This document shows positions 30,587 to 45,392 of a stretch of 62,166 nt of DNA, in pieces. Location of the stretch: NCBI RefSeq assembly GCF_046533075.1, contig NZ_JAJQRB010000001.1, forward strand, positions 1 through 62,166, given 5' to 3'. This DNA comes from Treponema primitia (GTDB taxonomy: Bacteria; Spirochaetota; Spirochaetia; Treponematales; Breznakiellaceae). Position numbers and translations under genes: made by a program. Each line of letters begins with the position of its first letter. Position 1 is the first letter of the stretch. Below the pieces are notes generated by a model, which was given only the letters and a program-made list of their open reading frames with translations, was not told the origin of the DNA and did no database searches.

Positions 30587-30668
30587 GCGGCCATGGTGGA
30601 ACTGGTAGACACGCCAGCTTGAGGTGCTGGTGCCGAGAGGTATGGAAGTTCGAGTCTTCTTGGCCGCA
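30587..30668 (+). tRNA. tRNA-Leu (anticodon GAG), long variable arm; CCA not encoded
   Basis: Acceptor stem GCGGCCA/TGGCCGC. Anticodon stem CCAGC/GCTGG with loop TTGAGGT, a long variable arm, and T-arm GGAAGTTCGAGTCTTCT. Confidence 0.85.
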
Positions 30669-30710: not shown

Positions 30711-30730
30711 CCAAGAAGACTCGAACTTCC
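30711..30730. repeat. Inverted copy of the tRNA-Leu T-arm (CCAAGAAGACTCGAACTTCC)
   Basis: Exact reverse complement of 30645-30664. Confidence 0.8.
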
Positions 30731-30824: not shown

Positions 30825-30888
30825 GCTGGAGGGTTCGAGTCTTCTTGGCCGCAACGAATGCCCCGCCTATTTGGCGGGGTTTTTTTAT
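30825..30888 (+). repeat. Direct duplicate of the tRNA-Leu 3' half plus a variant terminator (attL/attR-like remnant)
   Basis: GCTGGAGGGTTCGAGTCTTCTTGGCCGCAACGAATGCCCCGCC-tattt-GGCGGGG-TTTTTTT. The variable arm is deleted relative to the intact tRNA. Confidence 0.8.
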
Positions 30889-31463: not shown

Positions 31464-31612
31464 TGGACGATACGCTGTTTGAAGAAATTCTCAATGAAAT
31501 TGATTTGATGTCCTCTGAAGAATATTGGGCTTTTTATCGGGAAGCTAAGAAGTTACCTGATTTTAACCTGCTTATTCCGGCTGATTTGAACACAAATTCC
31601 GGCAACACTTGA
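31463..31612 (+). CDS. Small ORF (49 aa) translationally coupled to the DUF3990-like gene (TAATG overlap); 3' end runs into the IS21 terminus
   Basis: MDDTLFEEILNEIDLMSSEEYWAFYREAKKLPDFNLLIPADLNTNSGNT*. The stop codon lies inside the IS21 terminal repeat. Confidence 0.4.
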   Translation: MDDTLFEEILNEIDLMSSEEYWAFYREAKKLPDFNLLIPADLNTNSGNT

Positions 31613-31736
31613 ACATGAAACCGGAACATTTGAACATCGTACCTACTCCAGGACAAGGTATACCACAGGCCGGTAAAATTGTGCAAGCATGTTTTAGCGG
31701 ACTCTTATGCGCCGTAGGCGCCGGTCAAAGGAGGGG

Positions 31737-32480
31737 CTAATCAGGGTCCCTGTCGGCGAGAGTTTTTCTCATGGAATCCCCCGAAATGTTGAACTTATGG
31801 GCGTTGTGGACTACCCGGTCCAGGATGGCGTCGGCTAGAGTGGGGTCCGGAAATAGGCCGTGCCAAGCGGAACAGGGAAGCTGTCCTGAGATAATCGTCG
31901 AGGCGGCATCGTAGCGCCGTTCAAAGAGCTCCATGATTTCATGACTCTCCTCCAGGGTGAACTTCCGCAGCCCCCAGTCGTCCAGAATGAGCAGCGGAAC
32001 TGTCGCGAGGCGGTTACGAAGCAGGGTGAACCGGCCCTCCATCTGGGCATCGGAAAGCTGTACGAAGAAGTCGGGAACCCTGATATAGGTCACCGGGGTA
32101 CCTTGGTAACAGGCGGCGCGGCCGATGGCGCTGACAAGGTAGGTCTTGCCGACCCCGGTAGGACCCGTGATAAGGATATTCTGTTTGTTCCTGAGGTATG
32201 ATCCTTCGCACAAACGCTGTACATCGGGTTTTGAAATGCCGTGTTTTCCCTGGTAGTCAATGTCCTCAATGACCGCCGGGAACCGGAAGCCCGCCTGGGT
32301 CACCAGTCGGTTAATCCGCTTGGAGCGTTTGGCAAGCCATTCGGCCTCGACCAGAAGTGCCAGCCGTTCGTCGAAGGGGAGCGTGTCCGGACCCGGCTGT
32401 TCCTGCTGTTCGATGAAGGCGGCGGCCATGGCCGACAGGTGGAGGTCGTGCAGTTGATTTATCGTTGTTTTGTTAAGCAT
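31737..32480 (-). CDS. istB: IS21 helper ATPase IstB
   Basis: Walker A ILITGPTGVGKTYLVSAIG and Walker B LLILDDWG. The probable start is MLNKTTINQ at 32480. The longer annotated ORF upstream is an out-of-frame read-through of the istA 3' end. Confidence 0.85.
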   Translation of the reverse strand: MLNKTTINQLHDLHLSAMAAAFIEQQEQPGPDTLPFDERLALLVEAEWLAKRSKRINRLVTQAGFRFPAVIEDIDYQGKHGISKPDVQRLCEGSYLRNKQNILITGPTGVGKTYLVSAIGRAACYQGTPVTYIRVPDFFVQLSDAQMEGRFTLLRNRLATVPLLILDDWGLRKFTLEESHEIMELFERRYDAASTIISGQLPCSAWHGLFPDPTLADAILDRVVHNAHKFNISGDSMRKTLADRDPD

Positions 32481-34117
32481 TGAACGCCTCCTCAGCCAGG
32501 GATGGACCGTAGTATTCCTGTCCCCGGATGTTTTGATGGGTAATAGGGGGTGCAGCCTGCTCCTCCTGTTTCTTAAACAGCCGTTCAAAATACTTATGGG
32601 TATAGATGTTGGCGGCCAGGGCTTGCTCACAGACTTGTTCCATGTATTGCCGGGGTGCGTTCTGCCCCATGCGGAGGATACCGGCGCAGGTTTTAAATGA
32701 CTGTTCCGGATGTTCCCGCTGTTCCATAAGCCAGGTGATATAGGCCTCCGTTTTCGGCCCCGTCTTGGCCGCCCAGGAGCGGAACCGTTCAGGCGACCAG
32801 TCGGCGACCGCCTTGTGTTTCTCGGGCATATGCTCAAATCGGTGGGTTCTTTCCAGTCTTGGTTGAAAACATCACTTAAGATCATTTTTCAAGAAAGTTG
32901 TATTATTTTTCATTCAGCTTTTCTCGGTAATCAACTAACTTTGGGAAGAACCAATCGGTGGTATACCGGCTGCGCTTCTCGTAATTACGGATATGGCAGG
33001 AAATGCGTTCCCCCTCCGAAAACACCTCAATAGTGCGTATTGTAGCCCGTATTTCGACCTGTTTCCCCGCAAACGTGTAGGGCACGCTGTAGTAATACGA
33101 ATCGAACTGGACATGATAGTCGAAGCCGACCTTAGCCAGCTTATGTTCGGCGTACTCGTACCGGGACGGGGGAAGCGCCCGTAACTGCCCTTTCTCAAAT
33201 TCCAAGAAAGCCTCCTGCCGATTCCCCGGGATTTTTGCGAACGGCTGAGTGTTGAGGACTTCGAGCTCCGCCCTCACCGCCTTCCACAGTTCCGGGAAGG
33301 AAAGAAACTGCCGGTCCCGCAATTTCGCAATGATTCTGCGTTCCACGATTTGTACACCGGTTTCTACCGGCGCCTTGTCCCGGGGAGCTCTGGACCGGGC
33401 CGGGATGATGACCGCCCCATAGTACCGGGCCAGCTCGTGATAGGTCTTGTTAAGATCCGGGTCGTAGTATTTTGGTTTGATGACTGCCGTCTTGGTATTA
33501 TCTGGCACAAGAATCGCTGCGGCCCCGCCGTAGTACTCAAAGGCGTTTACATGGGCCGCGCTCCACGATTCCTGTCCCATGTTCAGGAACGGTTCCACAT
33601 ACAGGTAAGAACTGGCCGGGAGGTCTGCTACAAACAGGTATACTTTTACTGCTTCCCCCCGAGAATTGGTATACTGCATGGTCAGCCCTGCCCAGTCAAC
33701 CAGCATTCGTTCCCCGGCTTTGTAGGATTTATGCATATACACCTCATTCTGTTTACGGAACTTCCGATACCGCTCGCAGAATGGAGAAAGCATATATCCG
33801 TTGGGGTGGGCGGTTTTGTACTCCTCCCACAGGAGGGTTAGGGTGACCCCCTTCTTCTGCATTTCCCGGTGGACCCATTCCAGGTCCGGTTCGTCCCGCT
33901 GCGCCCCCGCCTCTTTGACCGCCGGGTACAGGACCTTGCTCAGCTCCTTGTTCCGTATGGCCTTAAGGTCGATGATGCCCGCCTCCCGGGCCCGCGCCAG
34001 AATGGCGTTCACATTCCCCAGGGAGCGGCCGGTGGCCCCGGCTATTTCCCGCTGTGTCATTCCTGCGTCCTTGAGCCGAAGGATTTCCCGTGCTTTTTCC
34101 ATCTCTACTCTCCTCAT
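32473..34117 (-). pseudogene. istA: IS21 transposase IstA, disrupted: N-terminal part (32903..34117) and C-terminal part (32473..32829) lie in different frames and are separated by a ~106-bp insertion
   Basis: N-part has the HTH (MTQREIAGATGRSLGNVNAI) and a DDE core. C-part has MPEKHKAVADWSPERF...HPEQSFKTCAGIL, the conserved IstA C-terminus, in another frame. Confidence 0.8.
32847..32952. mobile_element. MITE-like ~106-bp insertion inside istA with imperfect TIR (GGTTCTTYCC...) and flanking 9-bp direct repeat AATCGGTGG
   Basis: Direct repeats aatcggtgg at 32838-32846 and 32953-32961. The AT-rich insert starts GGTTCTTTCCAG and ends ...TTTGGGAAGAACC. Confidence 0.55.
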
Positions 34118-34671
34118 GATGTCGCTCCTTGGTTTGTTCCCGGAAGCGTACGATATTTTGGAGGGTTTGATGTTCAAATGTTCCGCAAGCCTGTTCAAGT
34201 GTTCCGCAAGCCTGTTCAAGTGTTCCGCATGGATGTTCAAATGTCGCCGCAAGCGTGTTCAAGTGTTGCCGTTTTTCTGTTCAAGTATTTCCGCAAGCCT
34301 GTTCAAATGCGCCGGAATTCATGTTCAAATGTCGCCGCAGAATGCAGTCATTATTAATGAAGCGTACCGGCGCGGGGACATTGAGACGAATATCATCCAT
34401 AACATCAAACCCTTGGCAGAGCATAGCAAAGAGCGCGGCGTCCTCACTGTAAAGGAAGCCACCCAGGTCCTTAATGAGCAAACATGGAAATTGGTATGGT
34501 CCGATCAGTGGATGCATTACATCTATAATTTGACGGCGGCTCAGACGAGGATGCGCTTCAGACTCCTTGTTAACACCGAATGGGATACTTAAACGACACT
34601 ACAGCATAATGTAAGGGTTTACATTAAAGCATAGAATATCGCCCCAAAGGGGTAGTGCTGATAGGTTTGCT

Positions 34672-35940: not shown

Positions 35941-36171
35941 GTGGATACAGCCATGATGGGTAGGAAAAGCAAACAGCTATGCATGATAATGATAGACATG
36001 GAGGAACTCATACCGAAAAATCATCTGGTAAGAAAGATAATAGAAGCAATAGATTTTGATTTTATATATACCGAAGCGGCAGAGTATTATTCAAATATTG
36101 GCCGTCCATCAATAGACCCTCTAGACTTCCCCCGGTTTGGTAGACGGTCCAATCCGATAATCATCCGGTAA
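35941..36171 (+). pseudogene. N-terminal fragment of an IS5/IS1182-family transposase (InsH_N/DUF772-like)
   Basis: …LIPKNHLVRKIIEAIDFDFIY…YYSNIGRPSIDP… then truncated. Confidence 0.6.
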
Positions 36172-36179
36172 GAGAAAAG

Positions 36180-37139
36180 ATTATGCGCCTGGTGGTGGTG
36201 GATGAACAGCACCGCTTCGGGGTAACCCAGCGCCAGGCCATCATGTCCAAGGGGGATCACCCGGGCCTCCTGATGATGAGCGCCACCCCTGGACCCTGGC
36301 GTTGACGGTTTTTGGGGACCTGGACGTTTCGGTAATCCCCGACATGCCCCCGGGCCGGAAACCCGTCAAAACCCACCTGGCAAAGGAGTCCAGCGAGGCC
36401 CGGGTCTACGACTTTGTCCGCAAGGAACTGGCCGCAGGGCATCAGGCCTATTTTGTCTATCCCCTCATAGAGGCGGACGGTAACAAGGCCCTCAAGGACG
36501 CTGAGTCCATGGCGGAGCGGCTGGCAAAAAAGGTTTTCCCCCAATACCCCACAGCCCTGGTCCATTCAAAGCTGGATGAAGAAGAAAAGCGGCGGGCCAT
36601 GGAACGGTTCCGCCTGGGGGAAATCCGCATCCTGGCGGCCACCAGCGTGGTGGAAGTGGGGGTGGATGTACCCAACGCCACCTGCATGGTCGTGGAACAC
36701 GCCGAGCGTTTCGGCCTTTCCGCCCTGCACCAACTCCGGGGCCGGGTCGGCCAGGGGGAAGCTCAGTCTTACTGCTTCCTGGTCTACTCCGATGCGCCCG
36801 ATGAGGCGGCGGGGGGGGCGGAGCCGAAGCTGCCGGGACGGTCCTGACCGATGACGGCAAGACCCGGCTCAAGGTGATGCTGGAAAACAACGATGGCTTT
36901 GTCATCGCCGAGGAGGACCTGAAGCTCCGGGGCCCCGGCCAGATTGCGGGCATCGAACAGCCGGGCTACCTATCCTTAGGGATCGCCGACCCCATACGGG
37001 ACGCCGAGGAACTTGCCCGGGCCCGGATCGACGCCTTCGCCATGCTGGAGGAGGACCCGGGGCTGCTCCTGCCAGAACACCGCCGCATAGCCCAGGTACT
37101 GGAACGGGCGCCGCCCTTTGCGAACGTGGTGCTGTGAGC
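36180..37139 (+). pseudogene. recG: recG 3' fragment (C-terminal ~320 codons of ATP-dependent DNA helicase RecG) with at least two frameshifts
   Basis: Three successive frames carry [17 protein letters not shown], then DLDVSVIPDMPPGRKPVKTH…HSKL…QLRGRVGQG, then NDGFVIAEEDLKLRGPG…. Frameshifts occur near 36295 and in the G8 run near 36815. Confidence 0.8.
37087..37129 (+). repeat. recG 3'-terminus, copy 1 (ATAGCCCAGG-tactggaacggg-CGCCGCCCTTTGCGAACGTGG)
   Basis: Directly repeated, minus the 12-nt insert, at 40741-40771. Encodes IAQVLERAPPFANVVL*. Confidence 0.85.
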
Positions 37140-37187
37140 TATGCTTATCGGTAAGTGGATAAATTGGATCTAAAAGGAATACGCAGA

Positions 37188-40100
37188 ATGAAACAATTGT
37201 ATATTTTCCTTATTATTTTGGCTTTTTTGGAATTCTTTGGCTGTGTGAGCCAGAGTCGGGATACATCGGGGGACCTCACCTCTGGTGAACGGGGGCTGGA
37301 GGTGATTGTTGAAGGGGAAGCTGAACCTGATGTGGAAGTGTTTCTACAGTTAGGGCACGCAGGCGGGGCACTGGATGCAGCGTTTAGTCCTGATGAAAGC
37401 CACATTATTTCAGCCTCACAAGATACCACGCTGAAGCTATGGGATATCGCAACTGGACGTGAAATTCGGACGTTTTCCGGACATTCAGGCGGAGTACGGT
37501 CAGTTGCATATAGCCCTGACGGAAAGCTTATCGCTTCGGGGGCTTCTGATAAAACCACGAAGCTGTGGGATGCCGTAACCGGGCGTGAAATCCGAACTAT
37601 AACAGAAGATTCCTCCATAAGTTATGTGGCTTTTAGTCCTGACGGTAAATGGCTGGTTACAAAAAGTTCTAATAATACCACGAAACTATGGGATATCGCC
37701 AATGGACAGGAAATCAATGCTTTCAACGGTGTAGTGGAATTTAATCCCGGCTGGGACCAAATTGCCCAATGGGATAGGGATGGAAATATTACAATCCGGG
37801 ACATCACAAGCGACCGTGAAATTCGTATTTTTCCGGGATATTCAAAGGGCATTACCGCCCTCGCGTTCAGTACCGATGGGAAACAGATTGTCTCAAGTTA
37901 TGAGGATAGGACCGTAAAAGTATGGAATATCGAAAACGGGCAGGAAACTCAAAGCTTCGTAATAAAAAAGAAGCAGGGAGAAGGAACCGGCATGACGCCA
38001 ACCATAAGATGTGTGGCTTTTGCGCCTGATGGGAAACGAATTGTCACAGGAGATGATGATCGTAAAATGAAGCTATGGGATAATAGTCAGGAAACCCAGA
38101 CCTATGAAGGTCACTGGGTTACGATCGTGGATGCAAATGGAGGGGAGACATCAAGTGACACCGGGCATTTTAAACGGCTTCAATCAATTTCATTCAGTTC
38201 CGATGGACGGCAAATTCTTTCAAGAAGTGATGATAGGGTAATATGCTGGGATACAGACAGCGGCCGTGAAATAGCCAATTTTAAAATAGCCGACCAGATA
38301 GCTTCCATAAAATTCAGTGCTGATGAAAAAAAGATCATTACAGGAGATTTATTTGGGAATCTTGAGTTGTGGGATTTTATTGACGGACAAAAATTACAGT
38401 CATTCAAAAAAAGCATGGTAGGAATGTCAAGCGTCGCATTTAGCCCTGACGGTTCTCAGATTGTTTTTAGTTCATCGGATGATAACACGGTAAAATTTTG
38501 GGATATTACAGTCGGAAAGTTAATTCGATTTTTTTCAGGTATTAATAAATATGACAAGATTAAAGGGATACGGTCGGTAATATTCAGCCCCAGCGGCAAA
38601 CAAATTGCTACAGGATCTTTAGGAAATGTAAAGTTGTACGATGCCGCAACAGGAGAGGAAATTCGTGTTTTTTCCGGGCAAAATTGGCCAGAGTCCATTG
38701 CCTTCAGTCCGGACGGAACAAAACTCGTTTCAGCATCCGATGACGGTACAATAAAACTGTATGATGTTGTAACCGGCGGTGAAATTGGCAATGTGGTAAA
38801 AAGGAGCTTTACAGGGGAATATCGTATTTTTGCGGAACACCCGGATGAATCCGTTGTTACGGCGGCCTTTAGTATTGATGGCAAACAAATCCTTTCCTGC
38901 GGTTCCTCGGGCACAGTGAAAATATGGAATTCAGCCGATGGACGCGAAATTCGTTCATTTCAAGCAAGCGAGACAAATAGTTCCGGATTAAAGGATCTGC
39001 TGTTTTCTGCAGCCTTTAGCCCTGATGGAAGCCGGCTTGTTACGGGATCTCGTTATGGTACTGTTAATCTTTGGAATACCTCAAGTGGACAGAAAATACG
39101 AACTTTAGGGGATTTGAGTAATAGTATTTTCGCTGTGGAGTTCAGTCCCGATGGAAAAAAAATTATTGCAGGGGATTACAATGTCTTGAAATTATGGGAT
39201 GCGGAAACCGGCCAGATAATTCGGAATTTCTCCGGTCATTCCGGTTTTATTCATTCCATAGCGTTTAATCCCGGCGGGCAGCAAGTAGTTTCAATTTCAA
39301 GTGATGGTACCGCCCGCATTTGGAATATTGAATCCGGTAACGAAATTGTCAAATTAGTTAATTATGCAGGCAAGGATACCCAAATAACATCCGGCGGCCG
39401 CGGGCTTACGGTGGAATTAGAAGATCAGGTAGGCTCGGTGGACAGCGAATGGATTTCCGTTACCCCCGATGGCTATTATAATGCTTCGCCCCGCGGCGAC
39501 CATTACTTCAATGTCCGTATCGGTAATACTGTATCCGGCATAGATGCCTACCGATCGATCTTCTACAACCCCGATGTAGTCCGGGCTCGTCTGCAAGGAA
39601 GGCCTGATCCTGCCTCCAAGGGTAAGGTTACTATTCAGCAGGCCGGTTTATTCAGCCCCCCAATTATTACCATACAGGAACCAGGTGTAAATAATATTGT
39701 TACCACCGCTACGACAAATTTATCGGTCGTCATCGAATCCAGTCGGCAGCCTATCAGTACTATCAAACTCCTCGTGAACGGCAGACTTGTCGGGCGTGAT
39801 GAATTGATCGCCGTCACCGGAGGTAACCTTACCCCTGAGAGAGCCAGCCTGACCGTCACCGGCGGCCAAAGGGTCATAAATTTCCAGCTCCCGGTGGGCC
39901 TTGATCCCGGCCTTAACCGCATTGAGGTGGTGGCCTTTAACGGTTACTCGGACAGCCGGAAGTGGGTGGATATTACCCGGCAGACCCGGACCGGGGAGCA
40001 AGCTGCTCCTCCTAATCTGTGGATTCTTGCGGTGGGTGTGAATCAATATAGCAGTTCCCAAATCAACAGCCTGGATTACTGTGTTGCCGATGCACGGGAA

Positions 40101-40736
40101 CTAATTGATTCCTTCTCTGCCCAGGAAGGTCGGCGTTATGGGAAGGTACACAGCCTCCTCATCGCCGATGGCGCCTCCATCGTCCCAACGGCGGCCAATA
40201 TCAGGGATAACCTTAAATTTCTCTCCGGGGCGGGACCCAAGGATGTGGTCCTGCTTTTCCTCGCGGGCCACGGGGTAAGCGATAATTCGGGAACCTTTCT
40301 CTTTCTTCCCAGAGATGCGGCCCTGACGGCGAACGGTGGGGTAAACCCTGCAAAGGCAATCTCCAACAATGATATCATTTCTGTACTGGATGCGCCCGGC
40401 AATCGGCTAGTGTTCATTGATGCCTGTCAATCCGGTGGGGTGGATAATGACCGCCTGGTCAGATCCCTCATGGACACCAACGCCTTCGTCTTTACTTCCA
40501 GCAGGGGGAACGAGAAGTCCCAGGAGCGGTCCGAATTAGGGCATGGGGTATTTACTTACAGCGTTATTCAGGGTTTAAAGGGGCTCGTTTCGGCCCAATC
40601 CGCCAATAACAGCATCAGCGTACTTGAATTGAGCGGTTTCGTGTCAACCAATGTCCTCAGGATTACTTCGGACCAACAGCACCCCAGCGCCTACTCCCTG
40701 GGGTTCTACGACTTTCCGATGGTGGAAATGCCATAA
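37188..40736 (+). CDS. Secreted/lipoprotein WD40-repeat protein with C-terminal caspase-like (peptidase C14) domain
   Basis: Signal peptide MKQLYIFLIILAFLEFFGC. About 14 WD40 repeats (…GHSGGVRSVAYSPDGKLIASGASDKTTKLWD…). C-terminal caspase fold with the His/Cys dyad (VLLFLAGHGV … LVFIDACQSGG). Confidence 0.85.
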   Translation: MKQLYIFLIILAFLEFFGCVSQSRDTSGDLTSGERGLEVIVEGEAEPDVEVFLQLGHAGGALDAAFSPDESHIISASQDTTLKLWDIATGREIRTFSGHSGGVRSVAYSPDGKLIASGASDKTTKLWDAVTGREIRTITEDSSISYVAFSPDGKWLVTKSSNNTTKLWDIANGQEINAFNGVVEFNPGWDQIAQWDRDGNITIRDITSDREIRIFPGYSKGITALAFSTDGKQIVSSYEDRTVKVWNIENGQETQSFVIKKKQGEGTGMTPTIRCVAFAPDGKRIVTGDDDRKMKLWDNSQETQTYEGHWVTIVDANGGETSSDTGHFKRLQSISFSSDGRQILSRSDDRVICWDTDSGREIANFKIADQIASIKFSADEKKIITGDLFGNLELWDFIDGQKLQSFKKSMVGMSSVAFSPDGSQIVFSSSDDNTVKFWDITVGKLIRFFSGINKYDKIKGIRSVIFSPSGKQIATGSLGNVKLYDAATGEEIRVFSGQNWPESIAFSPDGTKLVSASDDGTIKLYDVVTGGEIGNVVKRSFTGEYRIFAEHPDESVVTAAFSIDGKQILSCGSSGTVKIWNSADGREIRSFQASETNSSGLKDLLFSAAFSPDGSRLVTGSRYGTVNLWNTSSGQKIRTLGDLSNSIFAVEFSPDGKKIIAGDYNVLKLWDAETGQIIRNFSGHSGFIHSIAFNPGGQQVVSISSDGTARIWNIESGNEIVKLVNYAGKDTQITSGGRGLTVELEDQVGSVDSEWISVTPDGYYNASPRGDHYFNVRIGNTVSGIDAYRSIFYNPDVVRARLQGRPDPASKGKVTIQQAGLFSPPIITIQEPGVNNIVTTATTNLSVVIESSRQPISTIKLLVNGRLVGRDELIAVTGGNLTPERASLTVTGGQRVINFQLPVGLDPGLNRIEVVAFNGYSDSRKWVDITRQTRTGEQAAPPNLWILAVGVNQYSSSQINSLDYCVADARELIDSFSAQEGRRYGKVHSLLIADGASIVPTAANIRDNLKFLSGAGPKDVVLLFLAGHGVSDNSGTFLFLPRDAALTANGGVNPAKAISNNDIISVLDAPGNRLVFIDACQSGGVDNDRLVRSLMDTNAFVFTSSRGNEKSQERSELGHGVFTYSVIQGLKGLVSAQSANNSISVLELSGFVSTNVLRITSDQQHPSAYSLGFYDFPMVEMP

Positions 40737-40740
40737 AGCC

Positions 40741-40771
40741 CATAGCCCAGGCGCCGCCCTTTGCGAACGTG
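40741..40771 (+). repeat. recG 3'-terminus, copy 2 (ATAGCCCAGGCGCCGCCCTTTGCGAACGTGG), right boundary of the WD40-caspase cassette
   Basis: Encodes IAQAPPFANVAL* in the recG frame. Confidence 0.85.
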
Positions 40772-41139
40772 GCGCTCTAGCAGCCTGTTGCACTTGTAGG
40801 TTTTTTGCGCTTGAAGCCGCAAAAAACTTCGATTTATGGGCTGCTTACGGAGTTTGTAGGGTTGAAAAATTGCCAGATAGGCAATTTTTCTCGATTAATT
40901 GCGCGAAGCGCAACAAACTCCTAGGGGCTTACTTTTCTATCCTTAATCCCTCATTTTTGTATTCATCTATTGAACCATCAATGGTTAGCAAAATAAAATT
41001 ATTTCGTAGTGCTTCCCATACTAAAAAGCGGTCAAAGGGATCTCTGTGGTATAATGGTAAATGATAACTTGTAATTATATCAATGTTGTTTATTTCTTTA
41101 CATACATGCTCTTCTTGGCCGAAGAAAATGCCCCTTCAC

Positions 41140-41823
41140 TTAGTCCCAATCAAAACCTCCCAACCCTACATCGCCCGTCGGAACAGTACCCATATCAATA
41201 ATCGGGGCAGTATCCCCTGAGGGAAGGCCCGAAGTGTTTCCAAAAGGAAGGGCAGGAGTAAGGGACGCCGCCGCAGCTTCAAAGGGAGATACCACCCGGC
41301 GGTCTGTTTCATCAACATAGCTTGTTTCCCGTTTCGACACATTGACCAGGCTTCCGTTTGCATGAACATATTGAACCCGCCCCTCATCTACCCGGAGGTT
41401 CACCGTATCAAATTCAAAGGAGGTCCCCCGTACCGATGCGGTTACCGTAGGGCTCCTGACCGTAAAGTTGGTTTTTCCTCCGGAGGGGGGGCTTACATCT
41501 GCCCGAATCCTCCCGGCATGAAGGTATATGTTTACCTGTTCGTCCCCATCATTCCGCAGTATTTCTTCCAGACTTAAACGGGTTAAGGGCCGTACCGTAA
41601 TAACCGAATCTCCCAGTGCAATAAGGGCGGTACTTTTAAACCCCGTGGATATGCGGGTTCCCTTTTCTATCCGGTCCCCTTGAGCAGCTTTTACCCAAAC
41701 GGATGAACCGGATACCTGCATTTCTACGGTCCCGCTTAGTTCCCGAAAAAACCCGCTTTCCTGAGAAAATAATAATCCTGCGCTTATAATAAACAATACA
41801 AAAAACGATATTCTTCCCATCAT
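41140..41823 (-). CDS. FecR-like domain protein (signal/TM anchor plus beta-sandwich)
   Basis: 228 aa from MMGRISFFVLFIISAGLLFS. Motifs resemble FecR/DUF4974 (…GTVEMQVSGSSVWVKAAQGDRIEKGTRISTG…). Confidence 0.5.
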   Translation of the reverse strand: MMGRISFFVLFIISAGLLFSQESGFFRELSGTVEMQVSGSSVWVKAAQGDRIEKGTRISTGFKSTALIALGDSVITVRPLTRLSLEEILRNDGDEQVNIYLHAGRIRADVSPPSGGKTNFTVRSPTVTASVRGTSFEFDTVNLRVDEGRVQYVHANGSLVNVSKRETSYVDETDRRVVSPFEAAAASLTPALPFGNTSGLPSGDTAPIIDMGTVPTGDVGLGGFDWD

Positions 41824-41837
41824 GTCCTCCGCAATTT

Positions 41838-43058
41838 CTAGAACGATAACAAAGTCTCCAAAGAGACCCGCCACTTCACGGCGGCTCCCGAAGCAAAAGC
41901 CTTCCCGGTCTGGGGCAGGAAAGCTCCGCCGCCAAGGGTAAAGGCAATATCCGAAACCGGCGCCCAGATAAGGTTCGCGGCAAGCTCGCCCCCCAGCAGG
42001 GGAGAACGGGAATCCGTGTCCAGTTCAGTATCACGGTAAGTAGTAGTATCGGTGCGGAAAAAATAAGCCGCCGACCCTTCCGCCGAAATGGCCTTGTGGA
42101 GACGCCGGGTATAGCTCCCCTGTATCAGGGCAATACCTGAAAGTTTTGGCCGGAGTATCCTTCCCTGGGCTATGGTGCTTATGGGAAGGAAAGCCTGCGC
42201 CTGATCATTCCATGCCCCGGAGCTAAAGGAAGCTCCCAGAAAAAACCGGTCATTGGCGGGGCCGGGGGGAAGCCAAACCAGATCGGCCCTAAGGGCAAAA
42301 CAAAATTCTAATGGATTATCCCCGGGCTCTTTCTCAAGTAAACCCAGCACGGCCCCCAGATCGGCGTTAAAATCGTCCAGAAAGGGCAGACTCAAAGTTG
42401 CTTCCCCGTATTGGGAATTGACCGTATTGGATGAATCGTTCAAATCGAACTGCCCTATCATACCCAGCTTAAGAAACTTATCGGTATTGAACAGAGCGGG
42501 AATTCCCCAGTTCAGGGAAAAAAGTACACGCCGGGAAGAAAAATAGACATCCCGATCATGATAATCCGCATAATCGCTGTCGCTCATGGTGATATAGGCG
42601 TCCTTTTTATAGAGCAGCCCGGTATAAAAGGCCCTTGCGGAAAGCTTGGTTTTCCCCAGGCTGTACTCTGCGGAAAGACCATCAAAGAGGCCGCTTAAAA
42701 TAGTGTTTGAAGCTTCCTGGTAGAAACTCCGTCCGGCAGCCATGCGTAAACCTGACTTGAACCGATACCTCATTTCAAAGCGGTAAATCTCCGGGATCCG
42801 CTGCCATTCATCATCCGCCCGTTCCATAGAAAATCCACCGGAAAAGTAGAGATCCCCCTGTTCCCCAAGGGGCGCCGCAAACCAGGGAATTACCGTTCCC
42901 GTGTATTCAAAACTACTGCCGCCGGTATCACCATTGCGGAATAGCGGGAGTTGGCGCAGGGTCAGGCCGAAATCCTGGGCAAAGGCGGCGGGTGTACTCA
43001 GTATAAGTAACAGGATGAAAATGAAAAGATGGGGAGACTTGTTACAATTCATTTTCAT
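41838..43058 (-). CDS. Hypothetical outer-membrane-like protein (signal peptide, C-terminal Phe)
   Basis: 406 aa with a signal peptide (…ILSTPAAFAQ) and C-terminal …LETLLSF. Confidence 0.45.
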   Translation of the reverse strand: MKMNCNKSPHLFIFILLLILSTPAAFAQDFGLTLRQLPLFRNGDTGGSSFEYTGTVIPWFAAPLGEQGDLYFSGGFSMERADDEWQRIPEIYRFEMRYRFKSGLRMAAGRSFYQEASNTILSGLFDGLSAEYSLGKTKLSARAFYTGLLYKKDAYITMSDSDYADYHDRDVYFSSRRVLFSLNWGIPALFNTDKFLKLGMIGQFDLNDSSNTVNSQYGEATLSLPFLDDFNADLGAVLGLLEKEPGDNPLEFCFALRADLVWLPPGPANDRFFLGASFSSGAWNDQAQAFLPISTIAQGRILRPKLSGIALIQGSYTRRLHKAISAEGSAAYFFRTDTTTYRDTELDTDSRSPLLGGELAANLIWAPVSDIAFTLGGGAFLPQTGKAFASGAAVKWRVSLETLLSF

Positions 43059-43512
43059 AGTCCAGTGCCCGGCTAAGAATCCGCAGTAAAGTTTCTCCGG
43101 AAATTTGCGCGGTCGAATAGGACCGGCCCTGCAGTATTTGGAGGCGGCTCAGTTCCCGGTAACTGTAACGGGGACCGGGAAACAGGGTATACATAAGCCC
43201 CCCTTTCAGACTGAGGGACTTCATGATAAGAAGGGAAACCCCGCCAAAGGTGATCGCCCCTTCGGCCCGGGTTTTTTTAGGGAGCCATTTGTTTTCCCGG
43301 GCAAAGTTGTACGCCTCGGCAGGAGAACTGTCCGGGGGAAGGGCCGCTGTGGCGGAAAGGATAAACCAGGCGGCATCCTCGCAGCTGACGGTCTTTAGGC
43401 CGAGGACCCGTTCCAGTTCCGCCGCGGTTTGGGTGTGGGACAAGACGGCGGCGCCGAGAAACAGCAAAGTAACGATGCAGAACTTCTGCGGTGATAGTGA
43501 TGGTGTTTTCAT
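43042..43512 (-). CDS. Hypothetical secreted protein
   Basis: 156-aa ORF with a signal peptide, in the same operon as its neighbours. Confidence 0.4.
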   Translation of the reverse strand: MKTPSLSPQKFCIVTLLFLGAAVLSHTQTAAELERVLGLKTVSCEDAAWFILSATAALPPDSSPAEAYNFARENKWLPKKTRAEGAITFGGVSLLIMKSLSLKGGLMYTLFPGPRYSYRELSRLQILQGRSYSTAQISGETLLRILSRALDYENEL

Positions 43513-45392
43513 GGCAATACCGGCGGTCTGGTCTGCCAGGAAAGCACGGGGTAGTCGTAGCCGCTGATGAACTTCCAGCCGGTATCCCCAAAGGTCCAGC
43601 CGGCGGCGGTATAGGGCGTTTGTGTTATAAAAGCCGTAGGAGCTGTTGCCTGGCCAGCTTCATTGTTTGGTCCCGGAGCAGGGGTGGTGTTAGTATTATT
43701 TTGCAATACAATATCATCCCGGGAATAGTTACCGCTCAGTGTGACAGCAGAGGAAGCGCATATTGCATTCGCTATTTTTGTTGGTGCCGTTGAAGGACCG
43801 GCGTCAACCACGGAAACCAGGGCCATGCAATCGATGACGGTAACGCCGATACCGGCATTATCATAGCCCATTATCCCGCCGACATGGATAGCAACGTTTC
43901 CCGTTCCCATTGATTCTACCGTTCCCGCAGCGTAACACCTGGAGATAGTCCATAAATTGGTTCCAGCAATACCCCCCGCCATTATATTAGGACATGTGCC
44001 GGAACTTATTACATTGGCGTAAGCGTAGCAGTTTTCGATTACACCGGTAACACCGGCAGTATTAAGATAACCTGCTATACCGCCGGAATGCGAATCTGAA
44101 GAGGATCCTGTGGCAGTGCCTTTTATTATGCCCGAAGCATAACAGTTTTTTATCGTGACGCCGGTAATGGAATTGTTAGCCCTGCCAACTATACCTCCTA
44201 CATTGGAGTCATCGGCCTCCGTCTCTATACGGCCTTCGGCAAAACAGGCGGTAATTTCGCCATCCGCAAAAAAACCGGCAATTCCCCCGGTGGTGCCGTT
44301 CCCTGTAGGGGAAAGGCCGCTTATGCTGCCCTTAAAAGAGCTGCCGCTTATGGTCACATTCACAGAATTTCCCGCAATGCCGCCCACCATAAGAGCGTTT
44401 ACCGTTTCTCCGGCTATGTCCCCCTCGATATGGCAGTTTGTGATGGTGGTGGTTGTTCCGTAATTATTCGTACCCACAATTCCCCCCAGGTTGAGGGAAC
44501 TGACGCCGTTACCCTTGACCGAAAAAGAGCCGGAGACCTGAATATCCGTAAAGCTGGTATCAATTGCAAACCCGGCAACCCCGCCAGCGTGTTGGTCAGA
44601 ATAGGTGAGTCCATCCAGGTAGGTAAAATCCACCGGGGCGCCAAGGGTATAGTTAATCGTTACATTGCTGATTGCCGCATTGTCGACCAGACCCAAAAAT
44701 CCCACATACGCGAAATGTTCGCCCGCCGTTACATTTGCCCCGGTAAAGGAACCGATAGTGATACTGTGGCCCCCTCCGTCAAATACCGCCTCAAAGGGTG
44801 TTGTATAATCGCCTATGGGCGTCCAGGGCGCGGTCAGGACTATATCCCTTTCCAGATGAAAAATCTTCGTACCGTCGATGGCAAAATCCGTTCCTATGCG
44901 CCGCAGTTCCGCCTCGTTGTGGATGTAGATATCCGGAAGCTCCTCATAGTATGCCTTATAGATTGGATCTATCATCATGGGGATGTTGATAGGATTATTC
45001 GGTCCCGCCGTAACGTTGATCGTAATGTTGCCGGTCCCTACCAGCCTTGAAGCAGTGTCATAGGCATTAGCTTCAACGGCCCATGTCCCGATTTTCAGTG
45101 TAACCACCGGAGGCAGAGGCGGTTCCAGTTTTAAAGTTTCGCCCGGTCCGGTAAAGGTAAGTTTGTAGCTAATGCTGTGGCTGATAAAATCATCCGATAA
45201 AGACCGGGAAAAGCTGTTCCCACCCGGCAGTACCAGACGAATGGTTCCTTTTTCAGCGTTATAAGCGCTTCCCGAAGGCAAGTCACAGGAGGCCGCGCAT
45301 AGGGCTGCAAAAGCTAACCCAATCAGCGGCATTACCCAATGGAATCCGAAACGTTTTATTAAAAACCCCGCCATTTCCGATAATTTCCGCAT
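43509..45392 (-). CDS. Surface protein with GLUG-motif-like repeats (GGIAG/GGIVG every ~30 aa)
   Basis: At least eight repeats (HAGGVAGFAID, LGGIVGTNNYG, VGGIAGNSVN, TGGIAGFFADG, VGGIVGRANNS, SGGIAGYLNTAG, AGGIAGTNLWT, VGGIMGYDNAG). N-terminal lipoprotein-like signal. Confidence 0.6.
   Translation of the reverse strand: MRKLSEMAGFLIKRFGFHWVMPLIGLAFAALCAASCDLPSGSAYNAEKGTIRLVLPGGNSFSRSLSDDFISHSISYKLTFTGPGETLKLEPPLPPVVTLKIGTWAVEANAYDTASRLVGTGNITINVTAGPNNPINIPMMIDPIYKAYYEELPDIYIHNEAELRRIGTDFAIDGTKIFHLERDIVLTAPWTPIGDYTTPFEAVFDGGGHSITIGSFTGANVTAGEHFAYVGFLGLVDNAAISNVTINYTLGAPVDFTYLDGLTYSDQHAGGVAGFAIDTSFTDIQVSGSFSVKGNGVSSLNLGGIVGTNNYGTTTTITNCHIEGDIAGETVNALMVGGIAGNSVNVTISGSSFKGSISGLSPTGNGTTGGIAGFFADGEITACFAEGRIETEADDSNVGGIVGRANNSITGVTIKNCYASGIIKGTATGSSSDSHSGGIAGYLNTAGVTGVIENCYAYANVISSGTCPNIMAGGIAGTNLWTISRCYAAGTVESMGTGNVAIHVGGIMGYDNAGIGVTVIDCMALVSVVDAGPSTAPTKIANAICASSAVTLSGNYSRDDIVLQNNTNTTPAPGPNNEAGQATAPTAFITQTPYTAAGWTFGDTGWKFISGYDYPVLSWQTRPPVLP

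Follow-up and report, generated by a model that had tools for sequence, protein, structure and literature searches.

Why does a single intact gene for a caspase-like protein lie exactly between two copies of the end of a different gene? The question is raised by a contig of the spirochaete Treponema primitia, which we analysed over its whole length of 62,166 nucleotides (nt), hereafter the window; all positions are those of the window, read on the forward strand. In its middle part, the 3′ remnant of recG, a helicase gene, is followed by an open reading frame (ORF) for a predicted exported protein with WD40 repeats and a C-terminal caspase-like domain, and this in turn by a second, shortened version of the recG terminus. 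An earlier note on this DNA, made from the letters alone, had interpreted the arrangement as a mobile one-gene cassette. We find that this striking 'cassette' is best read, with due reserve, as a fossil insertion scar and not as a new mobile system, and that the part of it most worth experimental follow-up is the family of predicted exported double-propeller caspases to which the gene belongs.

Two RecG tails flank an intact gene

The upstream repeat, copy 1 (CATAGCCCAGGTACTGGAACGGGCGCCGCCCTTTGCGAACGTGGTGCTGTGA, 37086–37137), closes the RecG reading frame with the TGA at 37135–37137, and the downstream repeat, copy 2 (CATAGCCCAGGCGCCGCCCTTTGCGAACGTGGCGCTCTAG, 40741–40780), follows the TAA stop codon of the caspase gene (40734–40736). 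Divided into blocks, copy 1 reads CATAGCCCAGG-TACTGGAACGGG-CGCCGCCCTTTGCGAACGTGG-TGCTGTGA and copy 2 reads CATAGCCCAGG-(12-nt gap)-CGCCGCCCTTTGCGAACGTGG-CGCTCTAG. A search of both strands of the window, allowing up to three mismatches, finds the 23-nt core GGCGCCGCCCTTTGCGAACGTGG at two places and no more, and none of 100 shuffled sequences contains it. Besides this core, the copies share a further exact match of 11 nt, and their gapped local alignment scores 54, compared with 17.4 ± 2.3 and a maximum of 32 for shuffled sequences. Both translate to RecG C termini, IAQVLERAPPFANVVL for copy 1 and IAQ----APPFANVAL for copy 2; the closing motif of RecG in the nearest spirochaete homologues is (V/A)L(E/D)RAPPFxxVxL*.

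With the core found twice, absent from shuffles and read as a RecG tail in both places, the earlier claim that duplicate recG termini flank the gene is upheld, and the shuffle statistics exclude the chance similarity of copy 2 that the earlier note had named among the findings that would refute it. Its coordinates for the repeats (37087–37129 and 40741–40771) were right in position and too short in extent, as the repeats reach the stop codons at 37137 and 40780. The 12-nt deletion that it described in copy 2 is likewise present, together with four substitutions and not three. That the second tail reflects either chance or an artefact of assembly is hardly credible: the assembly is a draft and the repeat is short, but the exact matches of 23 nt and 11 nt encode a lineage-specific RecG tail, a 23-nt repeat is in our judgement not long enough to mislead a modern assembler into a false join, and the two copies differ.

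The peptide APPFANV, common to both copies, is found in none of 34 tails examined and in none of the 25 commonest endings among the 120 closest RecG homologues, which argues that both copies stem from one lineage. All the nearest RecG homologues keep the four residues absent from copy 2, so the 12-nt deletion in this copy is a derived defect. We discounted a leftward extension of copy 2 (TGCCATAA compared with TGCCAGAA), in which similarity was too weak to count, as well as an inverted repeat (40731–40751 and 42164–42184, 18 of 21 positions), a kind of pair that by our own calculation should arise about once by chance.

A truncated recG of probably foreign origin

Similarity to RecG begins near 36183, at helicase motif II, and three-frame translation places frameshifts near 36290 and at a run of eight G residues near 36815. 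The NCBIfam RecG equivalog models give E values of 7.5e-77 and 2e-20, with the two ORF pieces covering model positions 531–695 and 707–783 of 795. At its 5′ end, the fragment runs straight into part of an IS1182 transposase gene, an internal fragment that retains only the N-terminal 55 amino acids (aa); because of this junction, we consider both recG and the insertion sequence (IS) to have been cut by deletion and not by a clean IS insertion. With two frameshifts and an abutting IS1182 fragment, the recG copy is indeed, as the earlier note had it, a 5′-truncated, frameshifted pseudogene beside IS debris.

A reconstructed 270-aa RecG fragment has 6,744 homologues, of which the best 120 are 69–83% identical to it and all come from uncultured spirochaetes or Treponema metagenome-assembled genomes (MAGs); no T. 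primitia RecG is among these best 120 of 6,744. Two other proteins encoded in the window, FlhA and RelA/SpoT, fall into 90% clusters with other T. primitia proteins. To judge from its absence from the ranked homologue list, the recG piece is probably not this species' own and was acquired from another spirochaete lineage, and any integration at its end therefore probably took place in the donor genome. The GC content of the fragment (64%, compared with 51% for the contig) was dropped as a sign of foreign origin, as the recG genes of relatives have 60–62% GC within loci of 51–55% GC.

Origin of the duplicated terminus

Several features of the repeats bear on how they arose. First, the 39 aligned positions contain no mismatch in the 31 upstream and four in the final eight (T/C, G/C, G/A and A/G), a clustering with a probability of P ~8.5e-4 if mismatches were uniform (C(8,4)/C(39,4), own calculation). 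This placement argues that two related but distinct recG tails recombined, and against duplication in situ. Second, the similarity of both copies ends at the stop codon and copy 1 keeps a full-length tail, which again points to recombination; a boundary at the stop codon is expected if recG was functional at the time of insertion. Third, copy 2 ends in VAL*, as do the tails at loci L001 and L002, which is compatible with its being the displaced original end; copy 1 ends in VVL*.

The explanation that we favour, and to which we give an even chance, is that the locus is an attachment-site (att)-type insertion scar of a decayed integrative element, lying in acquired and decaying DNA. In another spirochaete, an element carrying the caspase gene and its own imitation of a recG tail would have entered a still functional recG at its 3′ end, recombining inside the 23-nt core either site-specifically or by a Campbell-type single crossover. 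The recG gene would thereby have kept a complete tail (copy 1), and its original tail (copy 2) would have been displaced downstream. Loss of everything else in the element would then have left the cargo gene alone, in a state comparable to that of a cis-mobilizable element (CIME). The segment comprising the recG 3′ end, the caspase gene and the second tail would later have reached T. primitia, in a mosaic of decaying acquired DNA beside a tRNA-Leu gene, where IS1182 and deletions may have truncated recG and frameshifts accumulated, leaving the caspase gene alone intact. On this scheme the insert starts on the left with GCTATGCTTATCGG… and ends on the right with …ATGCCATAAAGCC / …GAAATGCCATAAAGCC, and the sequence following the single tail at a would-be empty site is CAGCCTGTTGCAC. 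The earlier reading of an insertion at a gene's 3′ end that supplies a replacement terminus is thus retained in so far as the repeat pattern fits it, and given up as regards mobility at the present day.

There are precedents for such a scar. CIMEs are decayed remnants of integrative and conjugative elements or integrative and mobilizable elements that keep attL and attR and have lost their integration and transfer genes (PMC5704250). The locus resembles them in that its cargo lies between direct repeats that originate from a gene's 3′ end, in lacking integrase and transfer genes, and in that the upstream repeat completes the target gene. It differs in that no related integrase-bearing element and no second occupied site exist in the collections searched, that the remnant is a single gene, that the recG serving as target is a pseudogene, truncated and probably foreign, and that one repeat has suffered a deletion. 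The element e14 and phage 21 integrate at the 3′ end of icd in Escherichia coli and supply a diverged replacement end. The duplicate termini, the in-frame gene-proximal copy and the concentration of divergence past the crossover core are shared with these, whereas e14 and phage 21 carry an integrase by the att site and span tens of kilobases, and the insert in the window is 3.6 kb long and has no recombinase. The recG-tail scar serves as an example of how the placement of mismatches can tell att-type repeats from duplications in situ.

A number of observations weigh against an insertion scar. The cargo nearly fills the interval between the repeats, leaving 50 nt before it and 5 nt after it, so that a larger element could have decayed to this state only through a remarkably precise deletion. 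The earlier note had seen no integrase in the cassette, and we found no integrase or recombinase, nor a remnant of one, in it, in the called ORFs of the mosaic at 30.7–41.1 kb, in the uncharacterised parts of this mosaic when translated in six frames, or among the larger window ORFs run through Pfam or NCBIfam. A second recG tail occurs in none of 79 other spirochaete recG loci. In none of 81 loci of the caspase family does recG or a recG tail lie near the family gene (the sole RecG-like match, more than 4 kb distant, is a 32%-identical helicase), which answers in the negative, for these loci, the earlier note's question whether the fusion is habitually linked to recG. Nor are there flanking repeats around the family genes at L081 and L082, viral and metagenome contigs do not contain the core 22-mer, and the searches turned up no uninterrupted site.

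No family member is encoded in 80 recG loci, with which the window flanks have nothing in common; downstream of the closest recG genes compared (L083–L085), the three regions differ from one another and none is like either window flank; and a megablast search of plasmids matched only a conserved recG motif. Among the loci searched, the arrangement is unique to this contig. T. primitia ZAS-2 was considered as an empty site and rejected: it has a paralogous operon for GLUG-repeat, outer-membrane and FecR-domain proteins (GLUG-OMP-FecR), but not beside tRNA-Leu.

Because there is no recombinase remnant, the interval is tidy, and no related element or second site is known from these searches, template switching or another illegitimate event is a serious rival, although we consider it rather unlikely. 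The recG tail would in this case have been duplicated by rearrangement that is not site-specific, in DNA without function, either through microhomology-mediated template switching or illegitimate recombination with re-entry ~40–50 nt upstream, or through a duplication and a later deletion; the copies would have come to differ afterwards or in error-prone repair synthesis. The locus is pieced together from truncated genes that meet at ends other than those of an IS (the IS1182–recG junction, a PIN-domain gene fragment, the frameshifts and the 12-nt deletion), which, like the missing recombinase and the lack of recurrence in the loci searched, suits such an origin. Both junctions nevertheless fall at gene boundaries, namely the recG stop on one side and a unit of 50-nt leader, ORF and 5 nt on the other, as is rare for random breakpoints; four mismatches in the last eight of 39 positions resemble two related alleles and not neutral drift; and the ORF of 1182 codons is intact.

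Very improbable, in our estimate, is a cassette that is mobile today, that is, a single gene without an integrase that attaches at the recG 3′ end and is moved in trans by a recombinase encoded elsewhere in the genome. Copy 2 has been shortened at its 5′ side and has lost 12 nt, the recG target is a dead fragment, no second core or cassette is present in the window, the 79 recG loci, the 81 family loci or the viral and metagenome contigs, and elsewhere the family consists of ordinary chromosomal genes in operons. These facts have to be set against a compact unit with direct repeats abutting the gene, a 23-nt core identical in both copies, an ORF that is intact amid decaying DNA, and the fact that CIME-type elements can move in cis with the help of related ones (PMC5704250). 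The view of the gene as mobile cargo, put forward in the earlier note, is not sustained, there being no recombinase, no recurrent recG target in 79 loci, and a family that sits in ordinary operons. Still less credence can be given to a cassette system of non-integron type that would use a mimic of the RecG C terminus as its attachment site, be moved in trans and spread exported caspases among Treponema.

Two known kinds of element were also compared with the locus and set aside. An integron gene cassette is contradicted by the absence of IntI, by hairpins after copy 2 that on inspection have no RYYYAAC or GTTRRRY core motifs, and by the nature of the repeat, which is a coding recG tail. A diversity-generating retroelement is contradicted by the absence of a reverse transcriptase in the window and by repeat differences that are not adenine-specific.

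A predicted exported caspase with two propellers

The ORF between the repeats runs from a GTG at 37155 to 40736. The sensible start is the ATG at 37188, which is preceded by AAAAGGAA and gives a product of 1182 aa, in agreement with the NCBI protein MFP3040221.1 (WP_411045611.1), which is labelled 'caspase family protein' and is a singleton at 90% identity. The gene is intact, and its product is shorter than the 1193 aa that the earlier note had assigned. The leader is MKQLYIFLIILAFLEFFGC, in which MKQLYIFLIILAFLEFFG-C19 is lipobox-like by inspection. The Pfam WD40 model (PF00400) matches with E = 2.9e-104 and 10 scored repeats, and the whole-propeller models THOC3, WDR5 and WDR3 score above threshold over residues ~60–745; the figure of ~14 blades used here is a sequence-based count. 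The GC content within the gene is ~38–46% in the WD40 part and ~50–57% in the part encoding the immunoglobulin (Ig)-like and caspase domains, with a switch near 39300.

The C-terminal 455 residues contain a weak match to Big_7 and a match to Peptidase_C14 (PF00656) with E = 2.5e-13 and 50.7 bits, compared with a cutoff of 21.4, covering profile positions 5–225 of 233. The catalytic dyad lies in the motifs AGH1028G (codon 40269–40271) and DAC1080QSGG (codon 40425–40427). In the C-terminal segment, His301, Gly302, Asp351 and Cys353 are invariant in 52 homologues, His301 and Cys353 being His1028 and Cys1080 of the protein. In a sequence search of solved structures, the dyad aligns with the sGHG and DsCHSGG motifs of Arabidopsis metacaspase-4, and Asp968 with the aspartate of its CvnD motif; the acidic pocket residues are Asp968 and Asp1078. 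A profile search of solved structures with alignment A1 was dominated by WD40 matches.

An AlphaFold2 model built from the alignment has a mean predicted local distance difference test score (pLDDT) of 89.2 and a predicted template modelling score (pTM) of 0.87, and consists of three parts, namely a small unit of alpha/beta type, a beta-sandwich and a domain that is again alpha/beta. In a Foldseek comparison of this model with the PDB, the top matches were Yca1, the Candida and Arabidopsis metacaspases (AtMC9) and Sf-caspase-1, with E values of ~1e-8 to 1e-6 and probability 1.0. The predicted structure of the C-terminal domain is thus that of the C14 caspase-hemoglobinase fold with an intact His/Cys dyad, and the caspase assignment stands because neither the His nor the Cys is lost on alignment. 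Modelling of this domain, as proposed in the earlier note, gave a confident caspase fold with the dyad aligned to the metacaspase motifs, and predicted fold and family conservation agree with its claim of an exported WD40-caspase with an intact dyad.

In metacaspases, aspartates in the S1 pocket confer specificity for Arg or Lys at P1. By analogy with metacaspases and orthocaspases, the dyad of His1028 and Cys1080 and an S1 pocket formed by Asp968 and Asp1078 would cleave after Arg or Lys, in a protein that would be exported and lipid-anchored and whose propellers may serve as a binding platform.

An uncharacterised family of predicted proteases in spirochaetes

More than 100 homologues of the C-terminal segment, at a best identity of 68%, come from Joint Genome Institute (JGI) metagenomes, from single-cell genomes and MAGs of Spirochaetia and from Treponema MAGs, and a metagenome scan with alignment A2 yielded 79 family loci. 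Family ORFs whose start lies inside the contig mostly measure ~1050–1170 aa, and for this reason we regard the two-propeller architecture as the norm of the family. A simple pattern test detects a leader in 36 of the 43 complete family ORFs, and in 14 of the 36 also a lipobox-like Cys; the remaining seven have a hydrophobic stretch with no Met placed. In most members the leader is followed by a conserved motif of the type VAVFPQLGH. These results show the window protein to be a typical representative of a large family of predicted exported proteases, so far uncharacterised, that are encoded by uncultured Treponema and Spirochaetia. The earlier remark that such proteins are little studied is fair, with the qualification that this one already has an annotation and that the family around it is large.

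The family is usually found in ordinary-looking operons or tandem arrays. At 12 loci (L086, L094–L096, L098, L103, L104, L108, L119, L120, L141 and L149), a lipoprotein of ~490 aa with LpoB/CsgG/FlgO-like and DUF4384 domains is encoded directly 3′ on the same strand, for example at L103:4772–6217; this LpoB/DUF4384-type lipoprotein is likely to be a functional partner of the WD40-caspase. The solo copy in the window has no such partner. At 11 loci (L105, L110, L111, L114, L118, L129, L136, L140, L144, L152 and L158), a second WD40 paralogue with a signal peptide lies directly downstream, forming tandem arrays.

Fusions of WD40 repeats with orthocaspases are known from cyanobacteria, among them Trichodesmium TeMC9 and a Gloeobacter protein, and are biochemically uncharacterised (PMC5756287). 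They share with the window protein a p20-type caspase fold, a His/Cys dyad, an acidic S1 pocket and the presence of WD40 repeats in the same polypeptide (PMC5756287). By contrast, the order of domains differs, with the WD40 region N-terminal and the caspase domain C-terminal here, and the WD40 region C-terminal in TeMC9, the sole order given in that source. The window protein further differs in its two full propellers and Ig-like domain, and in a signal peptide or lipobox, which PMC5756287 does not mention for the cyanobacterial fusions; unlike these, its family often comes with the LpoB/CsgG-like and DUF4384 lipoprotein partner or in tandem arrays. The exported clade with WD40 repeats first appears to be undescribed in the literature searched, as a variant on a known theme.

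Since the window protein has a signal peptide or lipobox, it is expected to act outside the cytoplasm. Bacterial caspase homologues are usually discussed as cytoplasmic effectors of cell death or defence. A large extracytoplasmic clade suggests another role, for example in proteolysis at the surface or in the periplasm, or in interactions between cells.

Surroundings of the locus

The features of the locus are collected in Table 1. To its left lies a tRNA-Leu(GAG) gene at 30587–30668, whose 3′ end and hairpin are repeated directly 185 nt further on (30833–30886, 54 nt at 83% identity); between the two, the 3′ end also occurs as a perfect inverted copy of 20 nt (30711–30730). The tRNA-Leu 3′ end recurs a third time, as a weak copy (41110–41134, 21 of 25 nt), just ahead of the FecR operon; this copy is the best match outside the tRNA region, and 10 of 200 shuffles equalled it. 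These copies are suggestive of repeated integrations at tRNA-Leu and of a decayed island of ~10.5 kb bounded by the third copy.

Table 1. Features in and around the duplicated recG terminus
Feature	Position	Strand	Evidence
ORF of unknown type, 169 aa	right of tRNA-Leu repeats, left of IS21		
IS21 istA/istB, complete	31737..34252	-	NCBIfam
IS1182-family transposase, N-terminal fragment of ~55 aa; truncated, fused to recG fragment	35941..36120	+	NCBIfam transpos_IS1182, E = 2.5e-10, profile positions 2–55 of 488
recG 3′ fragment, motif II to stop codon, ~318 codons, pseudogene	36183..37137	+	NCBIfam RecG equivalogs, three-frame translations
recG terminus copy 1 (IAQVLERAPPFANVVL*), attL-like	37087..37137	+	Repeat search, shuffles, local alignment
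Caspase-gene leader, 50 nt, Shine-Dalgarno-like AAAAGGAA motif; sharp GC drop	37138..37187	+	Sequence, composition
Intact gene for 1182-aa, predicted exported WD40-Ig-caspase (MFP3040221.1 / WP_411045611.1)	37188..40736	+	ORF, Pfam, exact protein look-up
Putative signal peptide with lipobox-like FFGC (Cys19)	37188..37244	+	Sequence inspection
WD40 repeat region, ~14 blades, two propellers	37340..39400	+	Pfam WD40/propeller models; nucleotide repeat families spaced ~126 nt
Small alpha/beta linker (conserved TPDGYYxASPxGD motif), then Ig-like (Big_7-like) beta-sandwich	39441..39983	+	AlphaFold2 pLDDT >90 there; weak Big_7 match; conserved columns
Peptidase C14 caspase/metacaspase-like domain	40011..40733	+	Pfam PF00656, alignment of 52, metacaspase-4 motifs, Foldseek
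recG terminus copy 2 (IAQ----APPFANVAL*), attR-like, 5 nt past caspase stop	40742..40780	+	Repeat search, shuffles, local alignment
AT-rich structured spacer, three hairpins	40781..40928	.	Fold z-score -4.9 for 40737–40935
PIN/VapC-type toxin, C-terminal fragment (…HRDPFDRFLVWEAL…), 5′-truncated	40929..41075	-	Translation; tblastn matches to intact PIN genes in L122, L131

Between the tRNA-Leu gene and the IS1182 fragment, one end of the IS21 element (34181–34339) carries multiple 21–22-nt direct repeats of TTCCGCAAGCCTGTTCAAGTG, with an inverted copy at 31604–31643. The element of this family (31604–34340) appears intact, and its repeats resemble the multi-repeat termini of IS21. Pfam matches place an XRE regulator and a lipoprotein gene of 33% GC with InlB repeats between IS21 and the IS1182 fragment.

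Downstream of copy 2, the hairpin-rich spacer of ~150 nt folds far better than shuffled sequences; it has no match in Rfam, one of its hairpin sequences is single-copy in the window, and two are absent from viral contigs. The PIN/VapC fragment beyond it comprises the last ~45 codons and converges on the caspase gene. A caspase gene followed by a convergent PIN gene is also seen at L122 (7357–7461) and L131 (1345–1449), which represent one lineage and have both toxin and antitoxin intact. The linkage of caspase and PIN may be ancestral, or a coincidence; if it is ancestral, the second recG tail lies inside an older syntenic block.

To the right of the PIN fragment, an operon on the minus strand (41140–45392) encodes GLUG-repeat, 156-aa, 406-aa putative outer-membrane and FecR-domain proteins, and is also present at L165:7562–11920. 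This module is multi-copy: T. primitia ZAS-2 has two copies, the window strain has a second one, and metagenomes and MAGs contain more than 200 homologues.

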